From Planctomycetota bacterium (lineage in GTDB: Bacteria > Planctomycetota > UBA1135 > GCA-002686595), in the NCBI GenBank assembly GCA_047629095.1, contig JBLHWM010000001.1:1-46155 (forward strand): a DNA stretch of 46,155 nucleotides. The letters run 5' to 3'. A program made the position numbers and the translations under genes. Numbering within the stretch: position 1 is the stretch's first letter; each line of letters opens with the position of its first letter. Positions 1 through 38,720 of the stretch are shown piece by piece. Under the pieces are notes generated by a model. The model was not told the origin of the DNA. It saw only the letters and a program-made list of their open reading frames with translations, and did no database searches.

Positions 1-504
1 AAGCATCCGGGCCACAGCGAGGGCCGGCTCACCGCCGCCAAGGCGTGGCTAGTCTCCCGGGAGACCCTGGCGGAAGCGGCCCGTCACATCGGACTCGCCG
101 AGCAGGCCGACTTCGGCCGCGGCATGTCGGCCGAGACCGCCCCGCGTTCGGTGCTCGCCAACTTATACGAGGCCGTGCTCGGTGCCATCTACCTAGACGC
201 CGGGCTCGAGGCCGCCAGGGCCTGGACCCTGGAGACCTTGGCGAGCGCGTTCGCCTTGGCATCCAGTGCGGGGGAAGAGCGCAACCACAAGCAGCGCCTG
301 CAGGAGTTCGCCCAGTCCGGCGGCGGCGAGCCGCCCCACTACAGCCTGCTCGACCAGCGCGGCGAGGCCCACCGCCGCGCGTTCTTAGTGCAGGCCAGTG
401 TCGACGGCGAGCCCTATCCATCCGCCTGGGGTAGGACGCGCAAGGAAGCCGAGCGCTATGCCGCGATGGAAGCCCTACAGGTCATCGAAACGGAGGCGTC
501 ATGA
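1..504 (+). CDS. rnc: Ribonuclease III, C-terminal part (5' end lies outside the window)
   Basis: Frame 1 is open from base 1. The translation ...HSEGRLTAAKAWLVSRETLAEAARHIGL...NLYEAVLGAIYLDAGLEAA...HKQRLQEFAQ...GEAHRRAF matches the end of the RNase III catalytic domain plus the dsRBD. The TGA stop overlaps the mfd ATG (ATGA). Confidence 0.9.
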   Translation, partial: KHPGHSEGRLTAAKAWLVSRETLAEAARHIGLAEQADFGRGMSAETAPRSVLANLYEAVLGAIYLDAGLEAARAWTLETLASAFALASSAGEERNHKQRLQEFAQSGGGEPPHYSLLDQRGEAHRRAFLVQASVDGEPYPSAWGRTRKEAERYAAMEALQVIETEAS

Positions 505-3500
505 CTGCTACGGAAACCCAGGACGGCATCTACGGCGGCCCCGTGCTCGACACCGAGATCTTCTCAGACCAAGCTTCGTTCCAGACCCTAGCCCGCGAGT
601 TGGCCGGCGGTGGCCGGGTCTCCGCTGGCGGACTCTGGGGATCGTCCCAGGCGCTCTTGCTCGGTGGCCTCGTCAACCACGCGCCTGGTCCCTGGCTCGT
701 GGTCACCTCTTCCGAACCCGAAGCCGAGGCCTTCACGGCCGACCTTGTTGCCCTCGGCATCGAGGTCTGTCACCTTCCCGCTCGGGAGACGTATTCATCG
801 GGCTCGAACCGCAAGGCCCACGCCGACCCCGAGACGATCCGCGGGCGCCTGCAGGTCGCCGGCCTGCTCGGCGGTCCGGCCCCCCGCAGGCCCCGGTTGA
901 TCGTCTCCTCCCTGCTCGGCTGCCTGCAGCCGCTCCCGGTTGCGGACACCCTCGAGAAGGAGTTCCTGCACCTTCAAGTCGGCGGCAAGCTCGACGCCGA
1001 GGCTGTGCTCACGCGGCTGGCCATGGCCGGCTACACGCGCCAACCCCTGGCCGAGACGCCCGGTGAGGTCAGCCTGCGCGGCGACATCTTGGACCTGTTC
1101 CCCTTCGCGAACAAAGAGCCCCTGCGCATCGAGCTCTTCGATGAGGAGATCGAGTCCATCCGCGTCTTCGATCCCGCCTCCCAACGCAGCACCGATACCC
1201 TGACGCGCATTGCCGTCTGCATCGCCAGCGACGCGGGCGACGTGGAGACCGGCCAGGGCAAGCGCGTCGACGAGCTGATCGCGCCGACTGCGGTCATCGT
1301 CCAGGTCGAGCCCCTGCGCATCGCCGACATGGCCGAGGGCCTGCGCGTCCAATCCTCGATGCACGGCGCCGCGCTACTCCAGTGGAATAGAAGCCTAGAA
1401 CGGCACGCATCCATGGATTTGCAGAGCCTGCCCACCCGCGGGCTCGCCTTCGGAGTGCTGTCCGTCCAGGGACTCTCCGTGGGCATGACCGAGGCGGCGG
1501 CAGCTCTGGGTGAGGCCCTGGATCGGGCGGCGAAGAAGAAGGCCCGCGCCATCGTGCTCTGCGCTACCGAAGCAGAGCTCTCGCGCATGTCCGAGGTCTT
1601 CTGCGAGGACGACCGGGTCGAGCTGCGCATGGGCGCCCTTGGACGCGGCTTCCGCTTGACCAAGCCGCCGCTGATCGTCGTGAACCACCGCGAGCTGATC
1701 GGCATCCAGGGCACCAAGCGCATCGAGAAGAGCCAAGCGATCCACAAGGCGCGCGCCCTGCAGTCGTTCTTCGAGCTGCGCCTGGGCGACTATGTTGTGC
1801 ACGCAGTCCACGGGCTCGGGCGCTACCTCGGCCTGAAGCGCATGGACCGCAGCGGCGGCGAGGAAGAGCACCTCTGCCTCGAGTACCAGGACGAGGTCGT
1901 TCTGTATGTGCCCGCGTCGCGGGTCGACCTGGTCCAGCGCTACATCGCCAGCGGCAAGGGCTCCGGCGTCTCCCTGGACAAGATCGGCAGCAAGTCCTTC
2001 AAGAAGCGCAAAGAGAGGGTCGAGAAGGCCCTTGCCGACCTCGCGGCCGAGCTGCTCGAAGTGCAAGCCAACCGCGAGATGAAGAAGCGCCCGGCTTGGT
2101 TTGCGACCGAGGACAACCGAGGTGAGCCGACCGAAGAGCAGGCCATGGTCACCCAGATGCTGGCGGAGTTCCCCTATGTGGACACGCCCGACCAGTCCCT
2201 TGCCGACTCCGAGATCCACGCCGACCTGACCAGCCCCCTTCCTATGGACAGGCTGCTCTGTGGCGACGTGGGCTTCGGCAAGACCGAGGTAGCGATCCGC
2301 GCCGCCTTCCGCGTGGTTGCGGGCGGCGGCCAGGTTGCCGTTCTCGTGCCGACGACGGTGCTCGCCGGCCAGCACGACTCGACCTTCCGCACGCGCCTCG
2401 CCGACTTCCCCGTGCGCGTCGAGTCCCTGTCGCGCTACGTCACCGGCGCCAAGGCGAAGGAGATCGCCGAGGCCACCGGCCGCGGCGAGGTCGACATCCT
2501 GATCGGCACCCACCGCATCCTCTCCAAGGACGTCAACTTCCAGCGCCTCGGTTTGATCATCATCGACGAGGAGCAGCGCTTTGGCGTGACCCACAAGGAG
2601 CACTTCAAGAAGATGCGCGCCCAGGTCGACATCCTGACCCTGTCCGCGACGCCGATCCCGCGCACTCTGCACATGTCCATGTCTGGGCTGCGCGACATCT
2701 CGGCTCTAACCACTCCGCCGCCGGGCCGCCAGGACATCGAGACGATCCTGGCTTCGGGTGCGGACAAGCAGGCCATCCGCGAGGCTCTGCTGCGGGAGAA
2801 GAACCGCGGCGGCCAGAGCTTCTTCCTGCACAACCGCGTGCAGTCCATCGACCGCGTGGCCCGGGAGCTGGCCGAGCTGGTGCCCGAGTGCAGCTTCCTG
2901 GTGGGCCACGGCCAGATGGGCGGAAGGACCCTGCAGAAGATCATGGGCCTGTTCACACGGGGCGAGGCGGATGTGCTGGTGGCGACTACGATCATCGAGA
3001 ACGGCATCGACATCCCAACCGCGGGCACGATCCTCATGGATCGCGCCAACCACTTCGGCCTAAGCGAGCTGCACCAGCTGCGGGGCCGCGTGGGCCGCGG
3101 CTCGCACAAGTCGTACTGCTACCTGCTAACGGACGAGCAAAAGACCCTCACGGAGATCGCCGAGCAGCGCCTCAAGGCCCTCGAAGAGCTCAACCACCTC
3201 GGTTCGGGCTTCGCGATCTCGATGAAGGACCTCGAGCTGCGCGGTGCCGGTAACATCCTGGGTCCGGAGCAGTCGGGCCACATCACGTCGGTTGGCTACG
3301 ACCTGTATTGCCGCCTGCTGCGCAAGACTGTCGAGCGCATGCAGCGGGGCGGCGACGTGAAGTCGACCGAGATCCGGCCGGACGAGTTTGTGGATCCGGG
3401 CGAGGTCGAACTCGAGCTCGGTCTCAAGGCGTACCTCTGCGACAAGTGGATTCCGTCTTCGGACTCCCGGCTGGAGCTGCTGCGCTCGTTCCACGAGATC

Positions 3501-3860
3501 CGCACGGACGGCGACGGCAAGGAGGCCCTTGCGATGCTGCGGGACCGCTTCGGACGCGTGCCCGCCGAGGCCAAGGAGCTGGTGCGCCAGTTCCAACTGC
3601 GCGTGCTCTTTGGCAGCGCGAGCTTGACCCGGGTCGCCTTGCGCGAAGATCGCTGGCTGATCGCCTTCCGGGACCGTGCCACCCTCGAAGCCGCCCTCGC
3701 CTCCAGCGGCGCCCCCATCGAGATGCGGCCCCAGGGACAAGGCAAGGCCATCCTTATGGTCCCCAAGGGACTCGATGCAAGAAAAGCGACCGAGTGGCTC
3801 GAAGCAGCCTTGCGGGGCGACCCCAAAGCGAAGAGAATCAGCCTAGCCGCCCAAATCTAG
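501..3860 (+). CDS. mfd: Transcription-repair coupling factor Mfd
   Basis: 1119 aa. CarD-like motif YVVHAVHGLGRYLGL, Walker A GDVGFGKTEVA, DEEQRFGV box, helicase C motifs TTIIENGIDIP and QLRGRVGRG, and the length and domain order typical of Mfd. Confidence 0.97.
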   Translation: MTATETQDGIYGGPVLDTEIFSDQASFQTLARELAGGGRVSAGGLWGSSQALLLGGLVNHAPGPWLVVTSSEPEAEAFTADLVALGIEVCHLPARETYSSGSNRKAHADPETIRGRLQVAGLLGGPAPRRPRLIVSSLLGCLQPLPVADTLEKEFLHLQVGGKLDAEAVLTRLAMAGYTRQPLAETPGEVSLRGDILDLFPFANKEPLRIELFDEEIESIRVFDPASQRSTDTLTRIAVCIASDAGDVETGQGKRVDELIAPTAVIVQVEPLRIADMAEGLRVQSSMHGAALLQWNRSLERHASMDLQSLPTRGLAFGVLSVQGLSVGMTEAAAALGEALDRAAKKKARAIVLCATEAELSRMSEVFCEDDRVELRMGALGRGFRLTKPPLIVVNHRELIGIQGTKRIEKSQAIHKARALQSFFELRLGDYVVHAVHGLGRYLGLKRMDRSGGEEEHLCLEYQDEVVLYVPASRVDLVQRYIASGKGSGVSLDKIGSKSFKKRKERVEKALADLAAELLEVQANREMKKRPAWFATEDNRGEPTEEQAMVTQMLAEFPYVDTPDQSLADSEIHADLTSPLPMDRLLCGDVGFGKTEVAIRAAFRVVAGGGQVAVLVPTTVLAGQHDSTFRTRLADFPVRVESLSRYVTGAKAKEIAEATGRGEVDILIGTHRILSKDVNFQRLGLIIIDEEQRFGVTHKEHFKKMRAQVDILTLSATPIPRTLHMSMSGLRDISALTTPPPGRQDIETILASGADKQAIREALLREKNRGGQSFFLHNRVQSIDRVARELAELVPECSFLVGHGQMGGRTLQKIMGLFTRGEADVLVATTIIENGIDIPTAGTILMDRANHFGLSELHQLRGRVGRGSHKSYCYLLTDEQKTLTEIAEQRLKALEELNHLGSGFAISMKDLELRGAGNILGPEQSGHITSVGYDLYCRLLRKTVERMQRGGDVKSTEIRPDEFVDPGEVELELGLKAYLCDKWIPSSDSRLELLRSFHEIRTDGDGKEALAMLRDRFGRVPAEAKELVRQFQLRVLFGSASLTRVALREDRWLIAFRDRATLEAALASSGAPIEMRPQGQGKAILMVPKGLDARKATEWLEAALRGDPKAKRISLAAQI

Positions 3861-3864
3861 AACC

Positions 3865-4950
3865 ATGATCACGAACCTCAGCCTGATTGCCCTCGCCACT
3901 TTCGCCGCTACCGCTGCGCCCCTACCCCAGGACCCGGCCCCTACCCAGGTCGAGGCCGAGGACGAGGGCTGGCAGGTCTTCGACGGCGTTGCGCTGATCG
4001 TGAACGACGAGATCGTGACCCTGCGCCAGCTCAACACCTCTGTGAACGACGCCCGCGGCAACGCCGAGGCCACGACCCAGGAGGACGCCTTCGCCCTTAG
4101 AGACGGCGTCATCAGCGACTCGATCATGATGCACCTCCAGACCCAAGCCGGCCGCTCGCTCGGGGTCGCTGGGTCGGATGTGGAGCGCACGATCAACGGC
4201 TTCCTAGACAACAAGCGCCGCAGCATGTCCGCCACCGACACGACCGACTGGTTCCTGGAGGAGGGCGTTCAGGACCTCGGTCAGATGCGCGAGTCCATCC
4301 GCGAGGAGCTGTACCGTAGCCTCTGGATGCAGAACATCAGCGGCCAGACCAGCGGCGCCGATCGCCCCAGCGAGGATCGCTATGTGCGGCCGGGCCAGCT
4401 GCGGGAGGCCTATTACGTGAACAAGAGCGGCTACGAGACTCCCACCCGCTACATCTTGCAGTACTTGCGCCTGGTGGCCAACGCCTGGGGAGACGCCGAG
4501 ACGGCCCTCGAAGTGGCCACGGACCTGCGCGAGCAGATCGCCGGCGGCGCCGATATGGGCGCCTTCGTCGATGAGTACGGCGCCTTTCTACGCGAGAGGC
4601 GCGGGATCACGGAGCAGGTCGCCCTCGACCAGGTCGCCGAACCCGGCGTGCGCGGATTCCTGGGGGACGCCCGGCGCGGTGCCCTCTCCATGGTCATGCC
4701 GTATTTCGAAGGGGACGTGATCGCCGGTTACGACATCGTGAGGGTGGTTGAGATGCTCGAGGGCCAGGAAGCGCCGGCTTTCAACTCGCCAGGTATCCAG
4801 ATCGCCCTGCAGCGTGGCTTGCAGAGCCGCTGGGACAACATTCGGATCGCGAACGGCGCCGACGAGCTCTGGCGCGCCGCCTACATCCGTTTGCCCAACG
4901 GCATCCGCATCGACCCGCCCTGGGCCCAGCGAGCAGCCGCACGGCGATAG
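3865..4950 (+). CDS. Secreted SurA-N-like / degenerate parvulin-like periplasmic chaperone (tentative)
   Basis: N-terminal signal-like segment MITNLSLIALATFAATAAP. The segment GVALIVNDEIVTLRQLN resembles the start of the SurA N-terminal domain, and the later segment LREQIAGGADMGAFVDEYG resembles a PPIase-domain helix. The position right after mfd is common for SurA-like genes. The function call is soft. Confidence 0.55.
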   Translation: MITNLSLIALATFAATAAPLPQDPAPTQVEAEDEGWQVFDGVALIVNDEIVTLRQLNTSVNDARGNAEATTQEDAFALRDGVISDSIMMHLQTQAGRSLGVAGSDVERTINGFLDNKRRSMSATDTTDWFLEEGVQDLGQMRESIREELYRSLWMQNISGQTSGADRPSEDRYVRPGQLREAYYVNKSGYETPTRYILQYLRLVANAWGDAETALEVATDLREQIAGGADMGAFVDEYGAFLRERRGITEQVALDQVAEPGVRGFLGDARRGALSMVMPYFEGDVIAGYDIVRVVEMLEGQEAPAFNSPGIQIALQRGLQSRWDNIRIANGADELWRAAYIRLPNGIRIDPPWAQRAAARR

Positions 4951-5151
4951 GCGGCAATCGCTTAGCCGGGCGTAGTCTTTCCTGATTCCCTCGATATACT
5001 TTGAACCCCACATTTCGGGCCCCGTTTGGGGTCTGCCGTCGCTACCTCCTTTAATGGAGGTCGGCTGAGCGGCCCCACTGGATATCGAATACATAGGCCC
5101 CTGAAGGCCACCCCCGAGCGCCACCCGGCGCTCAAAAGCCCAACACTAGGC

Positions 5152-6726
5152 ATGAGCAACGCGGACTACAAAAACGTCGAACAGATCGAGAGCACTCTCC
5201 CCCGCCCCTGGGAAGAGGAGACCACCTTCAACGACGTACTCTACGATTGGATGGGACGCGCCCCTTGGCTTGCCATCTCCGGTGCAGCCCACCTGCTAGC
5301 GTTCTTCGTACTTGCAGCCATTCCATGGGACGCCTTCAACAAGCAGGAACCACCCGCGATCACCGCTTCTGTGGAAGCCCCCGCCGACGAGCCCATCGAG
5401 GAGCCCGAAGAGGAGGAAATCCCAGAAGAGGAAGAGGAGATCGAGCCCATCGAGGAGCCGATCCTCAAGGACGCCGAGGTCTCGGACCACAACGAAGAGG
5501 ATGTGGACCAGCCCTTCGAGTCCATGGTCGGTGACCCCGACATGAACTCGGACTCACCCTTCGACTCCGACAACTCCAACGACGTCATGGGCATCGGCGG
5601 CGGCGCCGGTGGCAAGTTCGGTGGACGCCTCGGTGGCCGTAAGAACCTGCGCGCAGCCCACGGTAAGGGTCTCGACCAGGCTCTAAAGGACGCCCTTGAG
5701 TGGCTGAAGAACCACCAGGGCCCCGACGGCTCCTGGGACACGGACGAGTTCAACACCGAGTGCGGCAAGATCGGCAACACGGTCTGCGGCGACCCCGGTT
5801 ACCCCCAGCACGACGTCGGCTCTACGGGCCTGGCCCTACTGGCCTTCCTTGGCGAGGGCAACACCACCGACTCCGGTGACTACAAGGTCCAAGTGGCCAT
5901 GGGCATCAAGTGGCTGCGCAGCGTGCAGGACCCCGACTCGGGCCTGCTCGGCGACAAGTCCAGCCACGAATTCCTGTACAACCACGCCATCGGCACCCTC
6001 GCCCTGTGCGAAGCCTACTACGCGACCAAGAGTCCCCTGCTGAAGCGGACCTGCCAGAACGCGATCAACTACATCAACCGTGCTCGTAACCCCTACAGCG
6101 CTTGGCGCTACGACGAGCCGCCCATGGGCGCGAACGACACCTCCGTCACGGGCTGGATGATCTTCGCGATCAAGGCCGCCGAAGACGCCAAGCTGCAGAT
6201 CGACCCGGGTGCCTACGTCGGCGCTCGCGAGTGGCTCAAGGAAGTCACCGACGAGGCCAACGGCCGCGTGGGTTACAGCGAGTACGGCAACCTGTCCTCT
6301 CGTATCGTCGGGGTCAACGATCACTTCCCCGCCGAGAAGGGCGAGTCCATGACTGCTGTGGGCCTTCTGGTCCGCATGTTCATGGGCGAGACCGATCCCA
6401 AGGAGAGCCCGATCCTCAAGAAGCACGGCGACCTGATGCTGCGCACCCTTCCCGAGTGGGATCCGGACGGCTTCGGCAGTGACATGTACTACTGGTACTA
6501 CGGCTCCTACGCCATGTACCAGCTCGGTGGAACGCACTGGAAGAAGTGGGAGACTGCTCTTAAGAAGACCATCCTCGAAAACCAGCGCAAGGACGGCGAC
6601 GAGAAGGGTTCTTGGGACCCGATCGGACCCTGGGGCTACGCCGGCGGCCGGATTTACTCCACCGCGCTGATGGCGCTCTGCATCGAAGTCTACTTCCGCT
6701 ACGGCAAAGTTGCCGGCGCGCGCTAG
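5152..6726 (+). CDS. Membrane-anchored prenyltransferase/squalene-cyclase-repeat (alpha/alpha-toroid) protein, paralogue 1, with a TonB-like N-terminal anchor
   Basis: ATG at 5152 (MSNADYKNVEQIESTLPRPWEEE) chosen over the upstream ORF extension because paralogue 3 begins the same way. One TM helix (GRAPWLAISGAAHLLAFFVLAAIPW), a Glu/Pro-rich spacer, a Gly-rich tract GGGAGGKFGGRLGG, then QW-type repeats (HQGPDGSWD, NQRKDGDEKGSWDP) and DTSVTGWMIFAIKAAEDA, YYWYYGSYAMYQLGG. Confidence 0.85.
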   Translation: MSNADYKNVEQIESTLPRPWEEETTFNDVLYDWMGRAPWLAISGAAHLLAFFVLAAIPWDAFNKQEPPAITASVEAPADEPIEEPEEEEIPEEEEEIEPIEEPILKDAEVSDHNEEDVDQPFESMVGDPDMNSDSPFDSDNSNDVMGIGGGAGGKFGGRLGGRKNLRAAHGKGLDQALKDALEWLKNHQGPDGSWDTDEFNTECGKIGNTVCGDPGYPQHDVGSTGLALLAFLGEGNTTDSGDYKVQVAMGIKWLRSVQDPDSGLLGDKSSHEFLYNHAIGTLALCEAYYATKSPLLKRTCQNAINYINRARNPYSAWRYDEPPMGANDTSVTGWMIFAIKAAEDAKLQIDPGAYVGAREWLKEVTDEANGRVGYSEYGNLSSRIVGVNDHFPAEKGESMTAVGLLVRMFMGETDPKESPILKKHGDLMLRTLPEWDPDGFGSDMYYWYYGSYAMYQLGGTHWKKWETALKKTILENQRKDGDEKGSWDPIGPWGYAGGRIYSTALMALCIEVYFRYGKVAGAR

Positions 6727-6750
6727 ACGGTCGACAAGACACCAATCGAG

Positions 6751-6790
6751 AAGCCCCCGGGTCCGCAATGCGGGCCCGGGGGTTTCTTCG
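6751..6790 (+). terminator. Rho-independent terminator after paralogue 1
   Basis: The 13-bp GC-rich stem CCCCCGGGTCCGC / GCGGGCCCGGGGG (one G-U pair) has an AAT loop and is followed by TTTCTT. Confidence 0.8.
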
Positions 6791-6826
6791 TGGGCGGCAA
6801 GTCGATCGGGCGCTAGGATTCATGGC

Positions 6827-8041
6827 ATGAAGAACACGCTTTGGATTGGAAGTGCTCTCGCCCTCTCGCTCTCCTGGGTAACCGGCTGCCGCAGCGCCAA
6901 TCCTGTGCCCATCGAGAACGACACCCAACGCATAGTGGAAGAGCCCGCCGAGTCCAGCGCGCCCCTGGAACCTGGGCCGATCAAGGATGCACTGGACTGG
7001 CTCAGCGCTCACCAAAACGAAGACGGGCATTGGGATGCGGATCGCTTTGGCGACGAGTGCGCAAAGGCCAGCAAGACGACCTGCGCAAACCCGGGCTCGG
7101 TCCAGCACGATGTGGCCGCAACGGGACTCTCGCTTTTGGCTTTCCTGAGCGCTGGCCAGTCCGAATATTCTGGCGACTACCGAGACCAGGTTAGCGCTGC
7201 TCTGAGGTGGCTGCGCCATCAACAAGATCCACAGACCGGCCTCATTGGGGAGCGAGTCAGCCACGACTTCCTCTACGGCCACGCGATTGCAACCTACGCA
7301 TTGTGCGAAGCCAACAACGTTGTCCGGGGGAACCCGCTGATCAAGCGCGCCAGCAACCTTGGGATTAGATACATCGCCAACGCGCGCAATCCCTACGGTG
7401 CTTGGCGCTATGACGTGCCGCCAATCGGAGACAACGACACGTCGGTCACCGGCTGGATGATGCTTGCCCTCAAGTCGGCCGAGCGCGGACGGCTGCCCGT
7501 GGACCAAGACGCCTTCAAGGGAGCCCTCTCCTGGATCGACGAGGTCACGGACGAGCAAACCGGTCGGGTCGGCTACAACGAAGTCGGCAGTACCTCCGCG
7601 CGTATCGTCGGGCTCAACGAGCACTTCCCCCCGGAGTCCGGAGAGGCCATGACCGCCATCGGCCTTTCGATCCGTATGTCCCTTGGGCAGATGGAGCCAG
7701 AGCAGTACCCATTGATAGCGAAGGGCGGCGAACTGATCCTGCGCAGCCTACCCACGTGGGAGCAGCAAGAGTTCACCAGCGACATGTACTACTGGTACCA
7801 CGCGACCCGCGCCATGAACGAACTAGGTGGCACCTACGCCGAAAAGTGGAACGCCGCCATGTTGCAAGCCACCACCCAAGGCCAACAAACCTCCGGCCAC
7901 GCGAAGGGATCCTGGGATCCGGTTGGGGCCTGGGGTTCATCCGGCGGACGCGTCTACTCCACCGCGCTCATGACCATGTGTCTTTCATTCCAGCTCGAGG
8001 ATCCGCTCGCCGAAGCTCTCAGCGGTTTGGGTTACCTGTAA
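6827..8041 (+). CDS. Lipoprotein with a prenyltransferase/squalene-cyclase-repeat (alpha/alpha-toroid) domain, paralogue 2
   Basis: MKNTLWIGSALALSLSWVTGC is a signal peptide with a lipobox (V-T-G-C). The rest is collinear with paralogues 1 and 3 (HQNEDGHWD, DTSVTGWMMLALKSAE, YYWYHATRAMNELGG, GSWDPVGAWG, VYSTALM). Confidence 0.85.
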   Translation: MKNTLWIGSALALSLSWVTGCRSANPVPIENDTQRIVEEPAESSAPLEPGPIKDALDWLSAHQNEDGHWDADRFGDECAKASKTTCANPGSVQHDVAATGLSLLAFLSAGQSEYSGDYRDQVSAALRWLRHQQDPQTGLIGERVSHDFLYGHAIATYALCEANNVVRGNPLIKRASNLGIRYIANARNPYGAWRYDVPPIGDNDTSVTGWMMLALKSAERGRLPVDQDAFKGALSWIDEVTDEQTGRVGYNEVGSTSARIVGLNEHFPPESGEAMTAIGLSIRMSLGQMEPEQYPLIAKGGELILRSLPTWEQQEFTSDMYYWYHATRAMNELGGTYAEKWNAAMLQATTQGQQTSGHAKGSWDPVGAWGSSGGRVYSTALMTMCLSFQLEDPLAEALSGLGYL

Positions 8042-8081
8042 GGTCAAGCGCGGCGCGCAGGTGATTCCCTTTTGGGACTTG

Positions 8082-8122
8082 ATTCCCGTTTAGAGGTCTT
8101 CCAGGGGCATCTAAACGGGAAT
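8082..8122 (+). terminator. Perfect 13-bp inverted repeat (hairpin): possible terminator of paralogue 2 or an operator
   Basis: ATTCCCGTTTAGA (8082-8094) and TCTAAACGGGAAT (8110-8122) are exact reverse complements with a 15-nt loop. The downstream sequence TCCCCGTTTGTTGTC is only moderately U-rich. ATTCCC recurs nearby, and GGGAATTCCCC is almost palindromic. Confidence 0.4.
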
Positions 8123-8279
8123 TCCCCGTTTGTTGTCAGGGCGATGTGAACCGAACTCTTGCCTGTCCGTTGTCTCTCTTGTCGCGGCCGCAAGGTTCGC
8201 GGCCGCAGGACACTCTTGGGGTGACTGGTCTCTGATTCCGAGCAGAGGTCCGCACTTGGGGAGACGGCCTTGGTTCCCA

Positions 8280-9845
8280 ATGACAACTTCAGACTACTCC
8301 ACAGTTCAGATTGAATCGACCCTTCCCAAGCCTTGGGAGGAAGAGCACTCCTTCAGTGAAGTGCTGTACGACTGGATGGGCCGCGCACCGTGGTTCGCCG
8401 TTTCAGGTGCCGCGCACTTGCTCGCTTTCTTCGTGCTGACGGCGATTCCCTGGGGCGCTTTCCATAGGGAAGAGGTGCCTGAAATCATCGGCACGATAGA
8501 GAAACCAGCACCCGACATCGTCGATGAGATCGAGCCCGAAGAGCTGCCCCTAATTCCCGAAGAAGCGGAGCTGGTGGAAGACCTGGACGACATGCTTTTG
8601 ACCGAGTCTGTGGACGAGATCTCCGACCAGGATGACCTTGCCTTCGATCCGGTCGTAGGCGAAGTCGCCAGTCCCTTCGAGTCCAATTTGGAAGCCATGA
8701 GTAACGAGATTGGCGTTGGCGGGCCAGGCGGCAATGGTGGAGACTTGGGCGGCGGCAAGGGCGGCAACGGTGGGCGCGGCGGAGTGCAGATGGAGCGCTC
8801 CCTGCATGATGCGCTCGAGTGGCTCAAGCATCACCAGAGCCCCGAGGGCTACTGGGATTCGGACGGCTTCTCCGACCACTGTGGTGGGATTGGCGGCTCG
8901 ATTTGTGAGGACCCCGGCTACGCACAGCACGATGTTGGCGTCACGGCGCTAGCGCTCTTGACCTTCATCGCCGCAGACAACACGACCAACCACGGTCCCT
9001 ACCAAGAGCAGGTCAAGCGGGGCATCAAGTGGCTGCGCACGATGCAAGATCCGGACTCGGGCCTCGTCGGCGAGAAGTCCAGCAAGGAGTTCCTGTACAA
9101 CCACGCGATCGCGACTCTCGCTTTGTGCGAAGCCTACTACGACAACGCGTCGCCGCTGCTGCGCATCACCAGCCAAAAGGCCGTCAACTACATCCAGATG
9201 GCGCGCAATCCCTACGGTGCCTGGCGCTATGACCAGCCTCCGATTGGCGCCAGTGACACCTCGGTCACGGGCTGGATGGTCTTCGCTTTGAAGGCCGCCG
9301 AAGACGCGAAACTCGATGTGGATCAAGGCGCCTTCGACGGTGCGATGGCCTGGTTGAACGCTGTCACCGACACGGCCAGCGGCCGCGTTGGCTACAGCGA
9401 ATACGGCAACCGGTCCTCGCGTATCACGGGCATCAACGATCACTACCCCGCGGACAAGGGCGAGGCCATGACGGCCGTCGGCTTGCTGTGCCGGATCTTC
9501 ATGGGCGAGAGCGACCTGCGCGAGTATCCGATCCTCAAAAAGCACGGCGATCTGATGATGCGCAGCTTGCCCGAATGGGACGACGACGGCTTTGGCAACG
9601 ACATGTACTACTGGTACTACGGTACCTACGCCATGTTCCAACTCGGGGGCAAGTACTGGAAGCAGTGGGAAGCTTCCCTGAAGACGACTCTGCTGGAGAA
9701 CCAGCGCAAGGATGGCGATGCCAAGGGATCCTGGGATCCGACCGGGCCCTGGGGATTCTCCGGCGGCCGGGTCTACTCGACGGCGATGATGGCCCTCTGC
9801 ATCGAGGTCTACTTCCGCTATCCCAACATCACAGGAGCAAGGTAA
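8280..9845 (+). CDS. Membrane-anchored prenyltransferase/squalene-cyclase-repeat (alpha/alpha-toroid) protein, paralogue 3, with a TonB-like N-terminal anchor
   Basis: ATG at 8280 (MTTSDYSTVQIESTLPKPWEEE) parallels the start of paralogue 1. TM helix GRAPWFAVSGAAHLLAFFVLTAIPW, acidic/Pro spacer, GGPGGNGGDLGGGKGGNGGRGG, then the same toroid motifs as paralogue 1. By eye about two thirds of the residues in that domain are identical to paralogue 1. Confidence 0.85.
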   Translation: MTTSDYSTVQIESTLPKPWEEEHSFSEVLYDWMGRAPWFAVSGAAHLLAFFVLTAIPWGAFHREEVPEIIGTIEKPAPDIVDEIEPEELPLIPEEAELVEDLDDMLLTESVDEISDQDDLAFDPVVGEVASPFESNLEAMSNEIGVGGPGGNGGDLGGGKGGNGGRGGVQMERSLHDALEWLKHHQSPEGYWDSDGFSDHCGGIGGSICEDPGYAQHDVGVTALALLTFIAADNTTNHGPYQEQVKRGIKWLRTMQDPDSGLVGEKSSKEFLYNHAIATLALCEAYYDNASPLLRITSQKAVNYIQMARNPYGAWRYDQPPIGASDTSVTGWMVFALKAAEDAKLDVDQGAFDGAMAWLNAVTDTASGRVGYSEYGNRSSRITGINDHYPADKGEAMTAVGLLCRIFMGESDLREYPILKKHGDLMMRSLPEWDDDGFGNDMYYWYYGTYAMFQLGGKYWKQWEASLKTTLLENQRKDGDAKGSWDPTGPWGFSGGRVYSTAMMALCIEVYFRYPNITGAR

Positions 9846-15334: not shown

Positions 15335-15577
15335 GGCGAATCTCGCACCTAAGCCCATACTGCAAAATGACTTACGGGCCCACCTCAACAAGAGTTTGCA
15401 AATGAGGGGCACGGTGTAGGACCCTCTCACCGATCTCTTTGTCTGGAGCATAACCCGAAGGAAATTTGCCGCAAGGTCTTCAATCGGGCGCGGGTGCACG
15501 GCATCCTCTCCGCCTCAATAAGTTCCCCATCCCTGACGGAACAACCATTCCCATTGCATTTCGGAGTGCACATACGA

Positions 15578-16558
15578 ATGAACAAGATCATCACTACGTC
15601 GATCGCCCTTGCGGTCGCATCTACTGCCAGCCTCGCCAACGGCGACTGGCTTCAACTTGACCAGGACATCGCGTCCCTTTCCAGCACGGTAGCTGCTGAC
15701 GGAGGCGCCACAGTCGGCGCTCTTCTTCGCAACTCCTACCGCGACGGTGGCACCACCGGCGGCTGGGCTTTCGAAGACGTCCTCGTCAACGCGACGGGCT
15801 CTCTCGAAGAGTTCTCTTGGCGCATCAGCTTCAACCTCGAAGGCGGCACCGCTGTCCTCGAGGACGCTTACGTCACCTGGGACTACGATGGCGACATCAC
15901 CAGCACCTGGGGCCAGTTCGTTCTGCCCATGTTCCGCAGCGCCACGATTGGTCAAGAGTCTATGCTCTTCATCGATCGCAGCCTTCTCGGTGCGAACTAC
16001 TACTCACACGATCAAGGTGTTTCGGTTGCTGGCTCCATGAATGGCCTCGACTGGACCATCGCTGCTCAAAACGGCGCCGACGCTGCTGGCGAAGACCTCA
16101 ACCTGTTCGCCCACGTCGAGTACAACCTCGGCAACGGCGCTAACACCTGCTGCGACGGCGCAATGCACGGTGGCGACGAGCTTGACGGCACCATTGGCGT
16201 CAGCTACATGGACATGCAGGACGACAGCCTTGACGCTGTTCTCGGCATCGACTTCGCCATGACCATGGGTCAGTTCAGCCTTCAGGCCGAGCTTGCCGAT
16301 GCTGGTGACGACACCGTCGGCGCTGGCCTTGGTGAGGCACCCTTTGCCATCACCTTCGGCTACCTCTTCGCTGACAACATGGAAGCCGCTTACCGCCACG
16401 AAGATCGTGACGACGCAGCCGACACCAGCGTTGAGAGCTTCGGCCTCAACTACTACCTGCACGGACACAACGCCAAGTGGCAGATCAACTACATCGACGA
16501 CGACGCCGCCGCCGACGAAGTGATCGCTGTTGGCCTTACGGTCGGCGCATCCAGCTGA
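15578..16558 (+). CDS. Outer-membrane porin, phosphate-selective porin O/P-like
   Basis: Signal peptide MNKIITTSIALAVASTASLANG, alternating beta-strand pattern, and FIDRSLLG and NYYLHGHNAKWQINYI motifs typical of the Porin_O_P family. Confidence 0.75.
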   Translation: MNKIITTSIALAVASTASLANGDWLQLDQDIASLSSTVAADGGATVGALLRNSYRDGGTTGGWAFEDVLVNATGSLEEFSWRISFNLEGGTAVLEDAYVTWDYDGDITSTWGQFVLPMFRSATIGQESMLFIDRSLLGANYYSHDQGVSVAGSMNGLDWTIAAQNGADAAGEDLNLFAHVEYNLGNGANTCCDGAMHGGDELDGTIGVSYMDMQDDSLDAVLGIDFAMTMGQFSLQAELADAGDDTVGAGLGEAPFAITFGYLFADNMEAAYRHEDRDDAADTSVESFGLNYYLHGHNAKWQINYIDDDAAADEVIAVGLTVGASS

Positions 16559-27614: not shown

Positions 27615-27659
27615 TATTAGCCCTCGATGGAGAGGGCCAACCTGGTCAAACGCCTGCGA

Positions 27660-29123
27660 CTAAAAGCCGGTGGAAGACAGGGCGTTCGTCAGGGTCACGT
27701 TGTCAGGCACGGAGAAGTCCAACGTTGCCATCTGAGAGTAGATGGTTACGCCAGCGAGCCCAGTGGGCCAGGTCAAGTCAAGCACGGCACCGCCAGCTGC
27801 ATTCGTGTTGAAGTTGACCAGCTTGAAGTAGTTGGTGGTGTGGAGCACGCCACCCCAGAGGGGCACCGGGTTGTCCGTGGCGGAGAGCGCCAAGAAGACC
27901 GGGCTGCTAGCAGCAGCTTGGGAGAGGGTCAGGCGGGCGGGAGCACCGTCCGTCAGGTAGCCGAAGCCCTGAAGCTGCGGGATGCCGTTGGCGCCACTAG
28001 GAGAGTTGCCACCAAGGTTGCCCCAGCTGTTGGGCAGGGTCACGATGAACGAGTCACCGTAGCCGAAGAACATGGGCGGCTGTTGGACGAGGAAGGTGTG
28101 GCCGTCAAGGGAGACACCGGGCACGCGGTTGATCGTGTTGCCGGTCGGGAGAGTGATCCCGTAGTTTGCGAAGAGGTCGTTGATGTTCTGCCCTCCGGTC
28201 CACGCGGTCCAGATTAGGCCCGTATCGGGGGAACCGAAGGGACCGCTTGCGCCGCCACCAGCACCAACAGCCACGCGGCCATCAGCGGAGATGTCGAGCA
28301 TGCCCTCACCGGAATTGTTGAGGCCAGCTTCGCCTGCGGGGAAGTGCAGAGCGCCGCCGCTGGCGACAACAGGACCGTCAAAGGTGGTGCCCACGAAGGA
28401 TTCACCGGTGAAGTCCGTAGCGAAAACCTCGCCACCTCCAGTCGGGTTTGCGACGGTCAGGTAGGGGAAGGAGAGAGTTCCTGCTTGGTCCCAAACGGCG
28501 CCAGAACGGCTAGTTGTCTGAATCCAACCAGCACTGACCAAACCGTCGCCAGAGGTCGCGGAGACCCTAGCGCTAGGCTGAGCAGTGGGAACGATGAACG
28601 AACTCGTGTCGAGCAGTTGGTACGTGTTGTTGACGATATCCCAGCGAAGAGGCCACAGATTGCAGCCCTGAACGGCGCTGACGCCGCCGACAGTTCCAGC
28701 CCAGTTGACGGAGCTGTTTGTCGAGGTAATGCTGCAACCATCGGCGTAACCCGGAGGGAACTGTGCGGTGGTGCTGCCACTGCCCGCGCCAGCTTGCCAG
28801 AAGCCGGGGGCGGCAGCGCCGATGTTGGGATCCTCAAAAGCACCAGCGATGATGCTGCCGTCGAAGTTCATGCGGCCGGCGAAGGACCCAATGTTCGTCA
28901 TCGTGCCGGGCAGAGTGATCTGGTTACCGGCCGGGTTCCAAGGGGCGACCAATCGAGCGGCACCGCTGACATCCTCACCCGAAACAGCGGTTCCGCTTGG
29001 CGAGAGGTGGTAGGCCGTGAAGCCGCTGGGCAGCGGAGTGATGGTTGCTTGAGCTGCGGCTGTGGTCGTCGCAAGGGTGAAGGCACCGAGCGTGATCAGT
29101 GAGGTAGAAAGGAAGGGCTTCAT
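27660..29123 (-). CDS. Secreted Gly/Thr/Ala-rich repeat protein, possibly HAF-like extracellular repeats (tentative)
   Basis: Signal peptide MKPFLSTSLITLGAFTLATTTAAAQA. Recurring segments such as SATSGDGLVSAGW, ISADGRVAVGAGG...GLIWTAWTGGQNINDL and VSLDGHTFLV. No catalytic motif seen. Confidence 0.6.
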   Translation of the reverse strand: MKPFLSTSLITLGAFTLATTTAAAQATITPLPSGFTAYHLSPSGTAVSGEDVSGAARLVAPWNPAGNQITLPGTMTNIGSFAGRMNFDGSIIAGAFEDPNIGAAAPGFWQAGAGSGSTTAQFPPGYADGCSITSTNSSVNWAGTVGGVSAVQGCNLWPLRWDIVNNTYQLLDTSSFIVPTAQPSARVSATSGDGLVSAGWIQTTSRSGAVWDQAGTLSFPYLTVANPTGGGEVFATDFTGESFVGTTFDGPVVASGGALHFPAGEAGLNNSGEGMLDISADGRVAVGAGGGASGPFGSPDTGLIWTAWTGGQNINDLFANYGITLPTGNTINRVPGVSLDGHTFLVQQPPMFFGYGDSFIVTLPNSWGNLGGNSPSGANGIPQLQGFGYLTDGAPARLTLSQAAASSPVFLALSATDNPVPLWGGVLHTTNYFKLVNFNTNAAGGAVLDLTWPTGLAGVTIYSQMATLDFSVPDNVTLTNALSSTGF

Positions 29124-29380
29124 TTGGTGTTCTCGGGTTCGAAAGGGGCCAGGTCCAGGCCCGTCGGAGTTCATCAATCCACGTACCTCTCTTGAGGTAG
29201 ACGCGAAACATCATTAGTTCGAACTCAACTCTACATCGAGATCCGAATAGAGGGGGAGATTTTCCCCAGGGAAGCTCCCGGCTTGTAAATTCCATAACTT
29301 AGGCGCAGGAATCAAGGTGCCCCATCCACCGAACCGTCGCTCTGGGCCAAGCGTCGAGCTTCCAAACCAAATGCGCCTCC

Positions 29381-36032: not shown

Positions 36033-38720
36033 TTAGCGTGCGGCGCCAAGCGCCTCCCACTCCTCGGTGGTCATTAGAATGTCACGGCGGGTTCCGCCGA
36101 GATACGGGCCGATGAGGCCCATGGATTGGAGTTCGTCGAGGATGGCCGTGGCTTCTTGGAAGTCCATGTCGAAGTTGCGCTGCAACATCGAGACCGCCAC
36201 CCGGCCTTGATCTAGGAAGAGTGCGCCACTGCGGAAGATCTTCTCCTCCTGGGAGAGTTCAACCACGGGCTCGTTCGGAGCCTGCTCGGGCTCCGATTCA
36301 GACTTGGCCTCGTCGGGCACAGCAACCGCCTCTTGGGAAGGTAGCACATACGACTCCTCTTCCTCGGCAGCCTCAGCTTCAGCCTTGGCAGCAGCTTGCT
36401 CGGCAGCCTTGGCCTCAGCCTTGGCCTCAGCCTTGGCAGCTTTCGCTTCTGCCTTCGCCTCGGCTTTCGCAGCCTTGGCCTCAGCATCCGCCTTCGCTTT
36501 TAGCTCGGCCTTTTCAGCGGCCTTAGCTTCCGCCTCAGCTTCTGCAGCCTTGGCTTCCGCCTCAGCCTCTGCGGCCTTGGCTTCTTCAGCGGCCTTAGCT
36601 TCCGCCTCAGCCTCTGCAGCCTTGGCTTCTTCTGCGGCCTTGGCTTCCGCCTCAGCCTCTGCGGCCTTAGCTTTTTCAGCGGCCTTAGCTTCCGCCTCAG
36701 CCTCTGCAGCCTTGGCTGCTTCTGCGGCCTTAGCTTCCGCCTCAGCCTCTGCGGCCTTAGCTTTTTCAGCGGCCTTAGCTTCCGCCTCAGCCTCTGCAGC
36801 CTTAGCTTCCTCTTCCGCCTTGACCTTGGCGGCCTTAGCTACAGCTTTCGCCTCGGCAGCCTGTGCTTCTTCAGCTGCCTTGGCCGCGGCCAATGCCGCG
36901 GCTTCCCTTGCGGCCTTAGCTTCGGCTTTTGCCTTAGCTTCAGTCGCAGCTTGATCTTCGGCCTTGGCCTGGGCGGCTGCCTCTTCGGCCTCGATGGCTT
37001 CGAGCTCCCGGAGCAATGCCATGTCCTCTTCGGTCTCCGCTTCCTTAGAAGGGTCTTCGGCGACAGTCGAGGCCTCGGAAGCTTGGTCCATCTCTACGAG
37101 AGACTTCTCTTCTACTTCAAACCGGCTAACGGGCTGAGCGGGCTGAGCGGGCTCATCGGAGTCGAACAGGCCCGGCTGCTCCCATGCGGGCCTGGGAGTC
37201 GAGTTCTCCACTTCGTCAAGATCCCCAAGGATCTCATCGTCGTCCTCGAGGCTTGATTCGATGCCCTCTTCGATTTCCGCGGATGGGGACTCCACTTCGG
37301 CTAGCTCGTCTTCGTCGAGCTCGGCGACTAGGTCGTCCTCGAGCTCGGCTGCTTCTTCCTCTTCGTACTCTTCCTCGTCCGCTTCGTCTTCGTCAAGCTC
37401 TGCGACTAGATCGTCCTCAAGCTCGGCTTCCTCTTCCTCTTCCTCTTCCTCTTCGTACTCTTCTTCGTCCTCGTCGAGTTCGGCGACTAGGTCGTCCTCA
37501 AGCTCGGCTTCCTCTTCCTCTTCCTCTTCGTACTCTTCTTCGTCTTCGTCGAGTTCGGCGACTAGGTCGCCCTCGAGCTCGGCTGCTTCTTCCCCTTCCT
37601 CTTCTTCCTCTTCGTATTCTTCTTCGTCTGCTTCGTCTTCGTCGAGTTCGGCGACTAGGTCGTCCTCAAGCTCGGCTGCCTCTTCGTCCTCGTACTCTTC
37701 TTCGTCCGCTTCGTCTTCGTCGAGTTCGGCGACTAGGTCGTCCTCAAGCACAGCGGCATCTTCGGGCTCCTCGGCTGCGGTCTCCCAGCTAGGGGCGCTG
37801 GGGATGGACGCCTCGAGCACAGTCACGCTTGCGTCACCCGAATCGAGGGGCCTTACTTCGTCTTCGTCGGTGCGAGTCCAGACTCCGTCGGCGAGCTTAC
37901 CCGTGACGGCACGGGCTTTCGGGGTGCCAGCGGAATCCGCGGGCTTGGTGTCAGCCAGATTTGAGCCAAGCGGCTTGGGCTGGGTTGCGCCTTCGGTAGA
38001 CCCTTTTTGGTCTGCCGTAGATGAACGGTCACTTTTGGATTCGGCTGGGGCATGATTCTCTTGGGTGGGCGCGCCGAGGGGGCGAACCCCATCGGGTAGT
38101 TCGCCTCGTGCGCGCTGCTCGTGAACGGTGACTCCCGGCGCAGCGGCGATCGGAGCGGGCAGTTCGGGGAAGAGTGCCTCGGCTTCCGCCTCGGACACTC
38201 CATCAGTCTCTACCTCACTCAATGCGGCAGCAACGGAACTCGACTCCACCACTTTTGACCTTTTTTGAGGCATGGGAGCTCCAATCGAGAGCCATGCCCC
38301 AAGAAATACGACTCCAAATGCCAGCAAAGCGTTCATGATGCCGCCGCCGATGCCGCCAAGGGCACCGGGGAGGAAGCCGCCGAGTGCGCCACCGGCCGCA
38401 ACGCTAAACACGCCGACCAAGAGGCTCAGGGCGAGTCCACCGCCGGCAATCATCGCTAGGGGCATGGAGAGCTTCAAGGCACCCGGGCGCAGGAACATGA
38501 TCCCGCCCAGCACAGTGCAGCCCGCCGACAGACCGAAGGCCGCGATGTGCCCAAGTCCAAGGATCAATGCACCGATCGCCGCCGTGGAAAGGTTGCCGGC
38601 ATCACCGGAGTCCGAGTACATGGACATGCCCGCGGACACCGCGCAGAATGCGCCGCCCAGGAAAAAAGCCATGGACAGGAGTTCGTAGCCAATGTGCTTA
38701 CTGTTCTTCGAATTACTCAT
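36033..38720 (-). CDS. FtsK-like membrane protein lacking the motor: polytopic N-terminus, long repeat-rich linker, FtsK-gamma-like C-terminal winged helix
   Basis: ATG at 38720 overlaps the ftsK stop (ATGAGTAA). The N-terminal roughly 150 aa form 4-5 Gly/Ala-rich TM helices. The C-terminal segment RVAVSMLQRNFDMDFQEATAILDELQSMGLIGPYLGGTRRDIL aligns with the gamma domain of the neighbouring FtsK. I found no Walker A or B motif anywhere in the protein. Confidence 0.8.
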   Translation of the reverse strand: MSNSKNSKHIGYELLSMAFFLGGAFCAVSAGMSMYSDSGDAGNLSTAAIGALILGLGHIAAFGLSAGCTVLGGIMFLRPGALKLSMPLAMIAGGGLALSLLVGVFSVAAGGALGGFLPGALGGIGGGIMNALLAFGVVFLGAWLSIGAPMPQKRSKVVESSSVAAALSEVETDGVSEAEAEALFPELPAPIAAAPGVTVHEQRARGELPDGVRPLGAPTQENHAPAESKSDRSSTADQKGSTEGATQPKPLGSNLADTKPADSAGTPKARAVTGKLADGVWTRTDEDEVRPLDSGDASVTVLEASIPSAPSWETAAEEPEDAAVLEDDLVAELDEDEADEEEYEDEEAAELEDDLVAELDEDEADEEEYEEEEEEGEEAAELEGDLVAELDEDEEEYEEEEEEEAELEDDLVAELDEDEEEYEEEEEEEEEAELEDDLVAELDEDEADEEEYEEEEAAELEDDLVAELDEDELAEVESPSAEIEEGIESSLEDDDEILGDLDEVENSTPRPAWEQPGLFDSDEPAQPAQPVSRFEVEEKSLVEMDQASEASTVAEDPSKEAETEEDMALLRELEAIEAEEAAAQAKAEDQAATEAKAKAEAKAAREAAALAAAKAAEEAQAAEAKAVAKAAKVKAEEEAKAAEAEAEAKAAEKAKAAEAEAEAKAAEAAKAAEAEAEAKAAEKAKAAEAEAEAKAAEEAKAAEAEAEAKAAEEAKAAEAEAEAKAAEAEAEAKAAEKAELKAKADAEAKAAKAEAKAEAKAAKAEAKAEAKAAEQAAAKAEAEAAEEEESYVLPSQEAVAVPDEAKSESEPEQAPNEPVVELSQEEKIFRSGALFLDQGRVAVSMLQRNFDMDFQEATAILDELQSMGLIGPYLGGTRRDILMTTEEWEALGAAR
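36515..36815 (-). repeat. In-frame tandem repeat, about 45-nt (15-codon) unit encoding AEAEAEAKAAE(K/E/A)AKA, about 6-7 copies
   Basis: The unit GGCCTTAGCTTCCGCCTCAGCCTCTGCAGCCTTGGCTTCTTCTGC recurs with small variations. It sits within a larger Ala/Glu/Lys-rich tract at about 36355-37000. Confidence 0.85.
37295..37760 (-). repeat. In-frame tandem repeat, six variable-length units (about 75-93 nt) encoding (E/A)ELEDDLVAELDEDE(ADE)EEYEEEE...
   Basis: The core GCGACTAG(G/A)TCGTCCTC recurs near 37325, 37403, 37484, 37559, 37651 and 37730. Unit length differs through the number of Glu codons. Confidence 0.85.

Follow-up and report, generated by a model that had tools for sequence, protein, structure and literature searches.

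Anchored (alpha/alpha)6 toroid proteins of uncultured Planctomycetota with a possible TonB/TolA-like way of working

The window analysed here, a 46,155-bp stretch of DNA that is one complete metagenomic contig of a Planctomycetota bacterium (JBLHWM010000001.1), holds three tandem + strand paralogues at 5152-9845, which we call P1, P2 and P3. Two of them, P1 and P3, combine a short cytoplasmic segment, a single transmembrane helix with a Ser-x3-His pair, a long acidic linker and a C-terminal (alpha/alpha)6 toroid, and we tentatively read them as TonB/TolA-like, probably stator-coupled, periplasm-spanning proteins with a toroid head. A preliminary description of the same DNA had proposed a proton-motive-force-coupled, envelope-spanning protein whose moving end is the toroid; anatomy, conservation and topology uphold that proposal, whereas linkage to motor genes (missing in 87 of 88 loci), anchor homology to TonB or TolA and the full SHLS motif of TonB (Ser-x3-His-x6-Leu-x3-Ser) do not. 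Motor coupling of the anchored toroids is nonetheless plausible.

Anchor, stalk and topology

The features of the three paralogues are as follows (aa, amino acids; AF2, AlphaFold2).

5152-6726, + strand: P1, anchored toroid protein of 524 aa (open reading frame and translation; Pfam SQHop_cyclase_C, 21.3 bits; AF2 model)
5185-5256, + strand: conserved cytoplasmic segment of P1, residues 12-35, made up of IESTLPRPWEEETTF and then the amphipathic helix FNDVLYDWMG
5260-5328, + strand: transmembrane helix of P1, residues 37-59, APW-LAI-S43-GAA-H47-LLAFFV-L54-AAI-PW (AF2, conservation)
5350-5382, + strand: D-box-like motif of P1, residues 67-77, PPAITASVEAP (alignment pattern)
5383-5577, + strand: acidic Glu/Pro linker of P1, with conserved motifs ILKDAEVSDHNEE (residues 104-116) and SPFD (residues 135-138)
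5578-5655, + strand: Gly-rich basic tract of P1, residues 143-168, NDVMGIGGGAGGKFGGRLGGRKNLRA, with nearly invariant G and R columns
5656-6723, + strand: (alpha/alpha)6 toroid of P1, approximately residues 169-524, with Cys204/Cys212 (AF2, Foldseek, Pfam)
6827-8041, + strand: P2, lipoprotein toroid paralogue of 404 aa lacking the anchor and linker (Pfam SQHop_cyclase_C, 27.2 bits)
8280-9845, + strand: P3, second anchored toroid protein of 521 aa (Pfam, 34.2 bits)
8385-8453, + strand: transmembrane helix of P3, same module as in P1
8475-8507, + strand: D-box-like motif of P3, VPEIIGTIEKP, same module
8703-8783, + strand: Gly-rich tract of P3, same module

The translation of P1 begins MSNADYKNVEQIESTLPRPWEEETTFNDVLYDWMGRAPWLAISGAAHLLAFFVLAAIPWDAFNKQEPPAITASVEAPADEPIEEPEEEEIPEEEEEIEPIEEP and reads, in order, ...IESTLPRPWEEETTFNDVLYDWMGR-APW-LAI-S43-GAA-H47-LLAFFV-L54-AAI-PW59-DAFNKQEPPAITASVEAPADEPIEEPEEEEIPEEEEEIEPIEEP..., then the Gly-rich tract, then the globular domain. 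Since orthologues begin at the same Met, 5152 and 8280 are the true starts of P1 and P3. The two proteins are 64% identical, and their translations agree with the near-identical N-terminal module noted in the preliminary description; the R-x-P-W sequence, the Ser-x3-His-x6-Leu helix (R36-A-P-W39, S43, H47 and L54 in P1), the Glu/Pro spacer and the Gly-rich tract are likewise present as it described them. An AF2 model of P1 built with 48 homologues places a cytoplasmic helix at residues 26-35 and the transmembrane helix at residues 38-56, the latter with a predicted local distance difference test score (pLDDT) of 81-91. Trp39, Ser43 and His47 form a stripe in the cytoplasm-proximal half of this helix, with His47 approximately 9 residues in, compared with approximately 8 for His20 of TonB.

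Conservation of the Ser/His pair was one of the points on which the preliminary description had staked its proposal. Not one of the 117 anchored copies (79 species-level genomes, all of uncultured Planctomycetota) has lost either residue (117/117), while the helix positions beside them vary freely. The position at His+7 is Leu in 52% of these copies and otherwise I, V, M, C, F or A. A profile of the module (the N-terminal 65 residues) was also searched against 1.84 billion representatives, yielding 137 proteins. Of 136 cluster representatives from this search, 125 retain the His, distant members included; most of the 11 lacking it are, from a reading of the sequences in which not every one was checked, regular-expression mis-registrations, diverging fragments at contig ends, or the unrelated repeat protein P0243. 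Ser43 is replaced by Ala in seven of the 125 His-bearing representatives, and on direct reading this change is always accompanied by Phe in place of Trp39 (7/7: P0153, P0168, P0182, P0183, P0209, P0216, P0219). Two residues that lie one turn from each other, both on the face of the His, covary in this way, which suggests a shared contact.

On the cytoplasmic side of the helix, six positions (W20, E21, E23, F26, L30 and W33) do not vary across 30 sequences, and a Thr or Ser precedes F26. On its outer side, a motif of the form [IVLF]-x-A-x-[ILV]-(E/D)-Q-(P/A)-P-E-E stands at a fixed +11 from the helix-ending Trp59 in 90 of 117 copies, without length variation; its consensus is EIQASIEQPPEE and the P1 version is AITASVEAP. 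The corresponding D-box (or motor box) of TonB, QPISVTMVTPAD, is captured by the ExbD dimer through beta-strand recruitment (PMC10907165), and is characterised by alternating buried hydrophobic residues, proline flanks and a position directly before the polyproline linker (PMC10907165; PMC12204202). The TolA equivalent is SIDAVMVD, and a canonical TonB of the same planctomycetal lineage has NLVIQAVETVALPPPP at this position. In pattern, position and Pro-flanking, the P1-type motif agrees with the TonB D-box and may be called D-box-like; the AF2 monomer model has no strand there.

The linker that follows is strongly acidic, with 33 D/E, 11 P and a net charge of -29 over residues 60-160, the acidic spacer proper occupying residues 78-103. 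AF2 leaves residues 72-161 disordered (pLDDT <50), giving a stalk of approximately 100 residues, which is long enough for crossing the periplasm. Because it holds the nearly invariant P-[VI]-L-K-D-A-E-V-S-D-H-N-E and S-P-F-D motifs and a Gly/Arg tract, the linker is more than a plain spacer.

Three lines agree that the anchored toroid proteins are N-in/C-out, with a toroid predicted to lie outside the cytoplasm, as the earlier envelope-spanning proposal supposed. A sister family, described below, carries a cytoplasmic FHA domain directly N-terminal of the same anchor; 21 of 145 toroid copies (~15%) in related loci lack the anchor, and many of these start, on direct reading, with a signal peptide or lipobox, as P2 does (MKNTLWIGSALALSLSWVTG-C21); and a Cys-x7-Cys pair is found in all three window paralogues (Cys204/Cys212 in P1, Cys78/Cys86 in P2). 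The positive-inside rule alone is not decisive, with approximately one K/R on either side of the helix on direct reading.

Likeness to TonB, TolA and vWA transducers

TolA shares Ser-x3-His-x6-Leu with TonB, whose E. coli sequence the preliminary description had quoted correctly. By cryo-electron microscopy, Ser16/His20 of TonB and Ser18/His22 of TolA contact helix 1 of ExbB and TolQ near the cytoplasmic face, and the Leu and Ser of SHLS are the less conserved part of the motif among TonBs (PMC12215075). P1 and P3 have in common with both proteins a single N-in helix that carries Ser-x3-His at a comparable depth and a long Pro-containing disordered linker ending in a globular C-terminal head; the short motif after the helix may be beta-prone as well. 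The heads themselves differ, being a ~360-aa (alpha/alpha)6 toroid in P1 and P3 versus the ~90-aa TonB_C/TolA-III fold, and Pfam gives no TonB_C match in the P1 head. As C-terminal domain, homology and motor linkage all fall outside the TonB/TolA pattern, P1 and P3 are not to be filed as members of either family. As a way of working, judged by analogy, the TonB-like resemblance would nevertheless be specific, and it has published precedent.

That precedent comes from Williams-Jones et al. (2025), who described, in Planctomycetes-Verrucomicrobia-Chlamydiae (PVC) bacteria and others, proteins whose SHLS helix and motor box lead through a linker of ~100 residues to a vWA head (PMC12204202). The genes of these vWA transducers lie beside tolQ-tolR-tolR in PVC bacteria, and further types were argued to await discovery (PMC12204202). 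The idea of a TonB-like stalk on a non-TonB head therefore already exists, and the toroid would add another type of head within the same concept and the same superphylum. The two differ in their heads and in that the vWA transducer genes lie directly downstream of tolQ-tolR-tolR, whereas the toroid genes are not so placed.

By chance we encountered an ExbB-ExbD-ExbD-vWA operon (L098, 6454-9092) whose vWA protein, P0272, is encoded directly after the motor genes and is an independent example of the vWA force transducers of PMC12204202. P0272 starts MKRFTTWSVLFAI-S-LIV-H-VIISW...EEIEINIAVAEPPPEP; on direct reading, its S-x3-H helix leads into IEINIAVAEPPPEP and an acidic/Pro linker, after which a Gly-rich tract joins the vWA domain. 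Judged by sequence, the layout of P1 and P3 is the layout of P0272, part for part. The D-box-like motif of P0272 is IEINIAVA, and a 754-aa gene with no Pfam match comes after the P0272 gene.

A second Planctomycetota family carries the same anchor (P0250 and P0257-P0269; L006 10001-11848 and L007 10001-12112), its proteins being laid out as cytoplasmic FHA domain, amphipathic helix, Ser-x3-His helix, I-E-V-D-M, acidic linker, Gly-rich tract and vWA domain. The toroid-anchor profile scores 25-36 bits on these FHA-vWA relatives, in contrast to ~0 bits for the anchor of P0272. The amphipathic helix recurs in this family while the PWEEE part of the cytoplasmic segment does not. A Gly-rich tract analogous to that of P1 stands ahead of the vWA domain both in P0250 and in the motor-linked P0272 on direct reading. 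In one member, P0262, Gln replaces the anchor His, and the FHA-vWA genes are conserved after pdxJ. On the bolder reading set out at the end, redeployment of one anchor cassette with FHA and vWA domains would point to a modular, possibly phospho-regulated 'plug-in' for 5:2 motors.

The same observations also bear on an alternative in which the protein is a transmembrane sensor: the toroid would sense a ligand, and the cytoplasmic motif would be read by a partner, possibly via Ser/Thr phosphorylation. The strong conservation of the cytoplasmic segment, including the Thr/Ser before F26, and the joining of the same helix module to an FHA (phospho-Thr-binding) domain in the sister family are in keeping with this. 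We nevertheless consider it improbable, given that the conserved neighbours of the gene include no kinase, sigma factor or response regulator, that a disordered linker of ~100 residues would be a poor conduit for a conformational signal, and that the toroid occurs in 1-4 tandem copies, some of them free lipoproteins.

A number of observations weigh against stator coupling, some of them in the anchor itself. The second half of SHLS (x6-Leu-x3-Ser) is not present in the 117 anchored copies, all of which have Pro rather than Ser at His+11, and the Trp-to-Ser spacing in the P1 anchor is one residue short of that of TonB. The cytoplasmic motif of ~35 residues, with its strongly conserved LPKPWEEE-TF, has no counterpart in TonB or TolA, which hints at a different or additional partner; the linker of P1 and P3 is purely acidic, without a Lys-Pro half. 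Among the 13,834 residues of window proteins the pattern S-x3-H-x6-L turns up three times, the third time in a helix of an unrelated multi-pass CDP-alcohol phosphatidyltransferase, so that the bare motif is weak evidence and carries weight because of its conservation across the family. Alignment of the anchor with TonB and TolA, which the preliminary description had suggested, failed at the profile level: searched against the PDB at E values up to 10, the anchor profile returned no TonB or TolA, and hmmsearch scores were 3.9 bits for E. coli TolA, -3.3 for TonB and ~0 for the motor-linked P0272. Homology of the anchor to TonB/TolA was accordingly rejected. A fusion of the anchor to TonB_C was rejected as well, since all 10 of the scanned full-length profile matches were toroid-type, FHA/vWA-type or had no Pfam match; none of the full-length matches among the 137 proteins is TonB-sized.

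The genomic context weighs in the same direction. No window open reading frame scanned had a MotA_ExbB or ExbD Pfam match, and tblastn with E. coli TolQ/TolR found no match in the window, so the earlier statement that the window holds no exbBD or tolQR genes was correct. We extended this motor synteny search, by tblastn with E. coli TolQ/TolR and Planctomycetota ExbB/ExbD/TonB, to the window and 87 related loci (1.4 Mb). Motor genes lay within 10 kb in one of the 88 loci (L072), and synteny with motors was rejected for the neighbourhoods of close and distant orthologues alike; the FHA-vWA genes, too, have no motor genes within 10 kb (L006 and L007 neighbourhoods). The L072 genes form a complete operon of the Vibrio TonB2 type, encoding a TonB-dependent receptor, DUF3450, ExbB (532 aa), ExbB, ExbD and TonB, on the opposite strand (470-7950, - strand) of the contig that carries a 58%-identical toroid orthologue. 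Operons of this kind are also found where toroid genes are absent. Moreover, three of three canonical TonBs examined in the lineage lack the anchor His (for example, GVVALTGASGMTLLCFLILPLI), so that the motor type seen need not use a Ser-His contact. The missing synteny removes the strongest kind of genomic evidence, although it is not fatal, as E. coli tonB is also unlinked to exbBD.

In favour of coupling, stators exist in toroid-bearing genomes. Besides the L072 contig, the metagenome-assembled genome GCA_020638875.1 has a Ton operon on one contig (JACKHS010000002.1) and a pair of toroid genes on another (JACKHS010000028.1), the corresponding proteins MCB9914102 and MCB9916353 having been paired by accession range and then confirmed to belong to the same genome. 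The preliminary description had called for a genome-wide search for orphan stators; these two relatives do encode ExbB-ExbD, the window's own genome lying outside the search. Helix 1 of the lineage's ExbB gives a mixed picture as to a Ser-x3-Trp partner for the Ser-His pair, many sequences reading F-S-V-G-F and 35 of 120 matching S-x3-[WF]. Clusters like that of L072 occur at L090 (521-9419) and L100 (2589-11586), with a TPR gene following in both; two genes 3' of the L090 Ton operon were considered and rejected, having no Ser-His anchor.

Toroid head and gene neighbourhood

The C-terminal domain was described earlier as an alpha/alpha toroid, and Pfam matches of 21-34 bits, the AF2 barrel and the Foldseek results all support this. 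AF2 predicts a confident, all-helical single barrel at P1 residues 159-516 (pLDDT 85-97). Foldseek against the PDB returned (alpha/alpha)6 barrels only, including AprG, single-domain squalene-hopene cyclase (SHC)-like cyclases, GH76 and epimerases, with a best target-normalised template modelling score (TM-score) of ~0.64, a root-mean-square deviation of 6-7 A and 9-18% identity. With generic barrels at TM-scores of ~0.6, a specific function read from the structure was rejected. A thioester (TED) reading was set aside as well, the sequence having no CGEQ-type motif on direct reading and the Pfam TED matches being marginal.

Databases annotate these proteins as active enzymes, under source names such as 'terpene cyclase/mutase family protein' and 'prenyltransferase/squalene oxidase repeat-containing protein', and an active terpene cyclase/mutase or prenyltransferase would agree with the Pfam SQHop_cyclase_C matches (cut-off 26.1 bits, with P1 below it and P2 and P3 above) and with a PDB profile match to squalene-hopene cyclase at 5.6e-06. 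The toroid shares fold class and QW-like repeats with single-domain SHC-like cyclases (8paj, MstE), AprG, GH76 and AGE epimerases, and differs from them in being periplasmic, in its TM-score of ~0.6 and in reaching no curated cyclase model. The squalene-hopene cyclase match covers the QW-type repeat stretch only (residues 165-262), and the NCBIfam cyclase models, whose cut-offs lie at 322-851, give 18-31 bits. The model predicts one barrel, versus the two-domain architecture of cyclases, and the domain would be periplasmic, whereas isoprenoid diphosphate substrates are cytoplasmic. The closest counterpart of the cyclase DxDDTA motif in P1 is G-A-N-D-T-S-V-T-G-W (consensus G-D-N-D-T-S), which on direct reading would put Asn at the position of the proton-donor Asp. 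Taken with these points, catalysis of this kind appears very improbable.

The toroid family comprises more than 5,500 clusters at E values up to 0.001, its named members all being from uncultured Planctomycetota, and occurs in at least 527 species-level genomes in addition to thousands of metagenomic protein clusters; a literature search for the family found nothing. Two further window genes on the 5' side of P1 belong to its conserved neighbourhood.

501-3860, + strand: mfd, transcription-repair coupling factor (translation; domain content of the syntenic gene in relatives)
3865-4950, + strand: SurA_N-like periplasmic chaperone gene (Pfam SurA_N, 1.5e-07), adjoining P1 on its 5' side with a gap of 200 nt

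The order mfd, SurA-like gene and 1-4 toroid genes on one strand is conserved among relatives (L001, L003, L005, L011-L089). Upstream mfd was found in 66 of 84 loci and a SurA-like gene in 54, nearly always directly upstream of the toroid gene or genes; where detected, both are always upstream and on the same strand. Distant members keep the mfd-chaperone-toroid order, the chaperone there carrying PpiC rotamase domains. The number of toroid copies per locus is one in 35, two in 39, three in eight and four in two; half of the genomes have two anchored copies. P2-like secreted copies recur in a minority of genomes, and the earlier suggestion that the lipoprotein P2 could be a partner or target is not supported. 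As read from sequence, the SurA-like neighbour suggests that the toroid proteins serve in building the envelope or outer membrane, motor or not.

This context speaks for the main alternative, possible if rather unlikely, in which P1 and P3 are static inner-membrane tethers that act with the SurA-like chaperone in envelope or outer-membrane biogenesis, with no motor. The polar stripe and the membrane-proximal motif would then bind another inner-membrane complex or self-associate, and the linker would be a flexible spacer, holding in the periplasm an (alpha/alpha)6 barrel that binds a ligand or acts as an enzyme. The only conserved context, even in the most distant members, is mfd, the SurA-like gene and the toroid or toroids; motor linkage and anchor homology to TonB/TolA are lacking; the anchor has an extra cytoplasmic motif; and the Foldseek neighbours are glycan and terpenoid enzymes and binders. 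A pairing of this kind is familiar from E. coli, where PpiD-YfgM joins an anchored chaperone to an anchored helical-repeat protein; the toroid loci resemble it in setting a SurA/PpiC-family chaperone gene beside a gene whose product is all-helical, periplasmic and anchored by its N-terminus. YfgM is small and TPR-like, has neither a long acidic linker nor a polar stripe on its helix, and showed no sequence relationship to the toroid proteins, although no search was aimed at one. A static tether leaves unexplained why a single-pass helix should keep His and Ser invariant on one of its faces, the conserved strand-like motif at fixed spacing outside the membrane, and the point-by-point layout match with the motor-linked vWA transducer, and the mfd-surA adjacency, with its 200-nt gap before P1, may predate the toroid gene and be unrelated to it.

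Elsewhere in the window, a Pfam scan of every substantial open reading frame of the 46 kb identified housekeeping genes. On the 3' side of the toroid genes, the opposite strand carries rpsT and a TPR gene, then def and ribF. An open reading frame at 15494-16558 (+ strand) has a weak Porin_O_P match (2.2e-05), as would fit an organism with an outer membrane. Adjoining ftsK, an 898-aa protein (36033-38729, - strand) combines a multi-pass membrane region at its N-terminus with long acidic repeats (DDLVAELDEDEADEEEYE...), an extended block of KAAEAEAEAKAAE repeats and a C-terminus consisting of FtsK gamma (winged-helix) only, without the motor domain; it accounts for an AT skew of -0.40 at 36-38 kb. 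At 27627-29177, a 505-aa - strand open reading frame overlaps two + strand ones (196 and 252 aa), none of the three with a Pfam match, so that either strand may be the coding one.

A possible mechanism and its meaning

Beyond the observed architecture, conservation, topology and fold class, we infer a partner, an energy coupling and a ligand for the TonB/TolA-like protein as follows. The Ser-His face would dock outside an ExbB/TolQ-type pentamer, and the periplasmic domains of an ExbD/TolR dimer would capture the strand motif, as with the TonB D-box. Proton-driven motion of the stator would then pull or reposition the toroid together with its ligand, which may be some envelope glycan or isoprenoid lipid. 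Given the SurA-like neighbour, the process served would be outer-membrane or envelope biogenesis. A bolder extension, which we consider possible though rather unlikely, is that these proteins represent a third head type after TonB_C/TolA-III and vWA, namely a glycan- or lipid-binding barrel moved by a stator and working with a SurA-like chaperone in envelope biogenesis.

The anchored toroids pair the stalk anatomy of the known force transducers with an altogether different head, and their genes hold a fixed position beside a SurA-like chaperone gene. If they are motor-driven, the TonB-type stalk would be an adaptor of general use for varied periplasmic tools, Planctomycetota, whose envelope is debated, would lend themselves to the study of energised envelope biogenesis, and the label 'terpene cyclase/mutase' would be wrong for thousands of database entries. 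If they are not, they would constitute an unstudied, highly conserved envelope protein whose membrane-embedded, invariant His needs another explanation.

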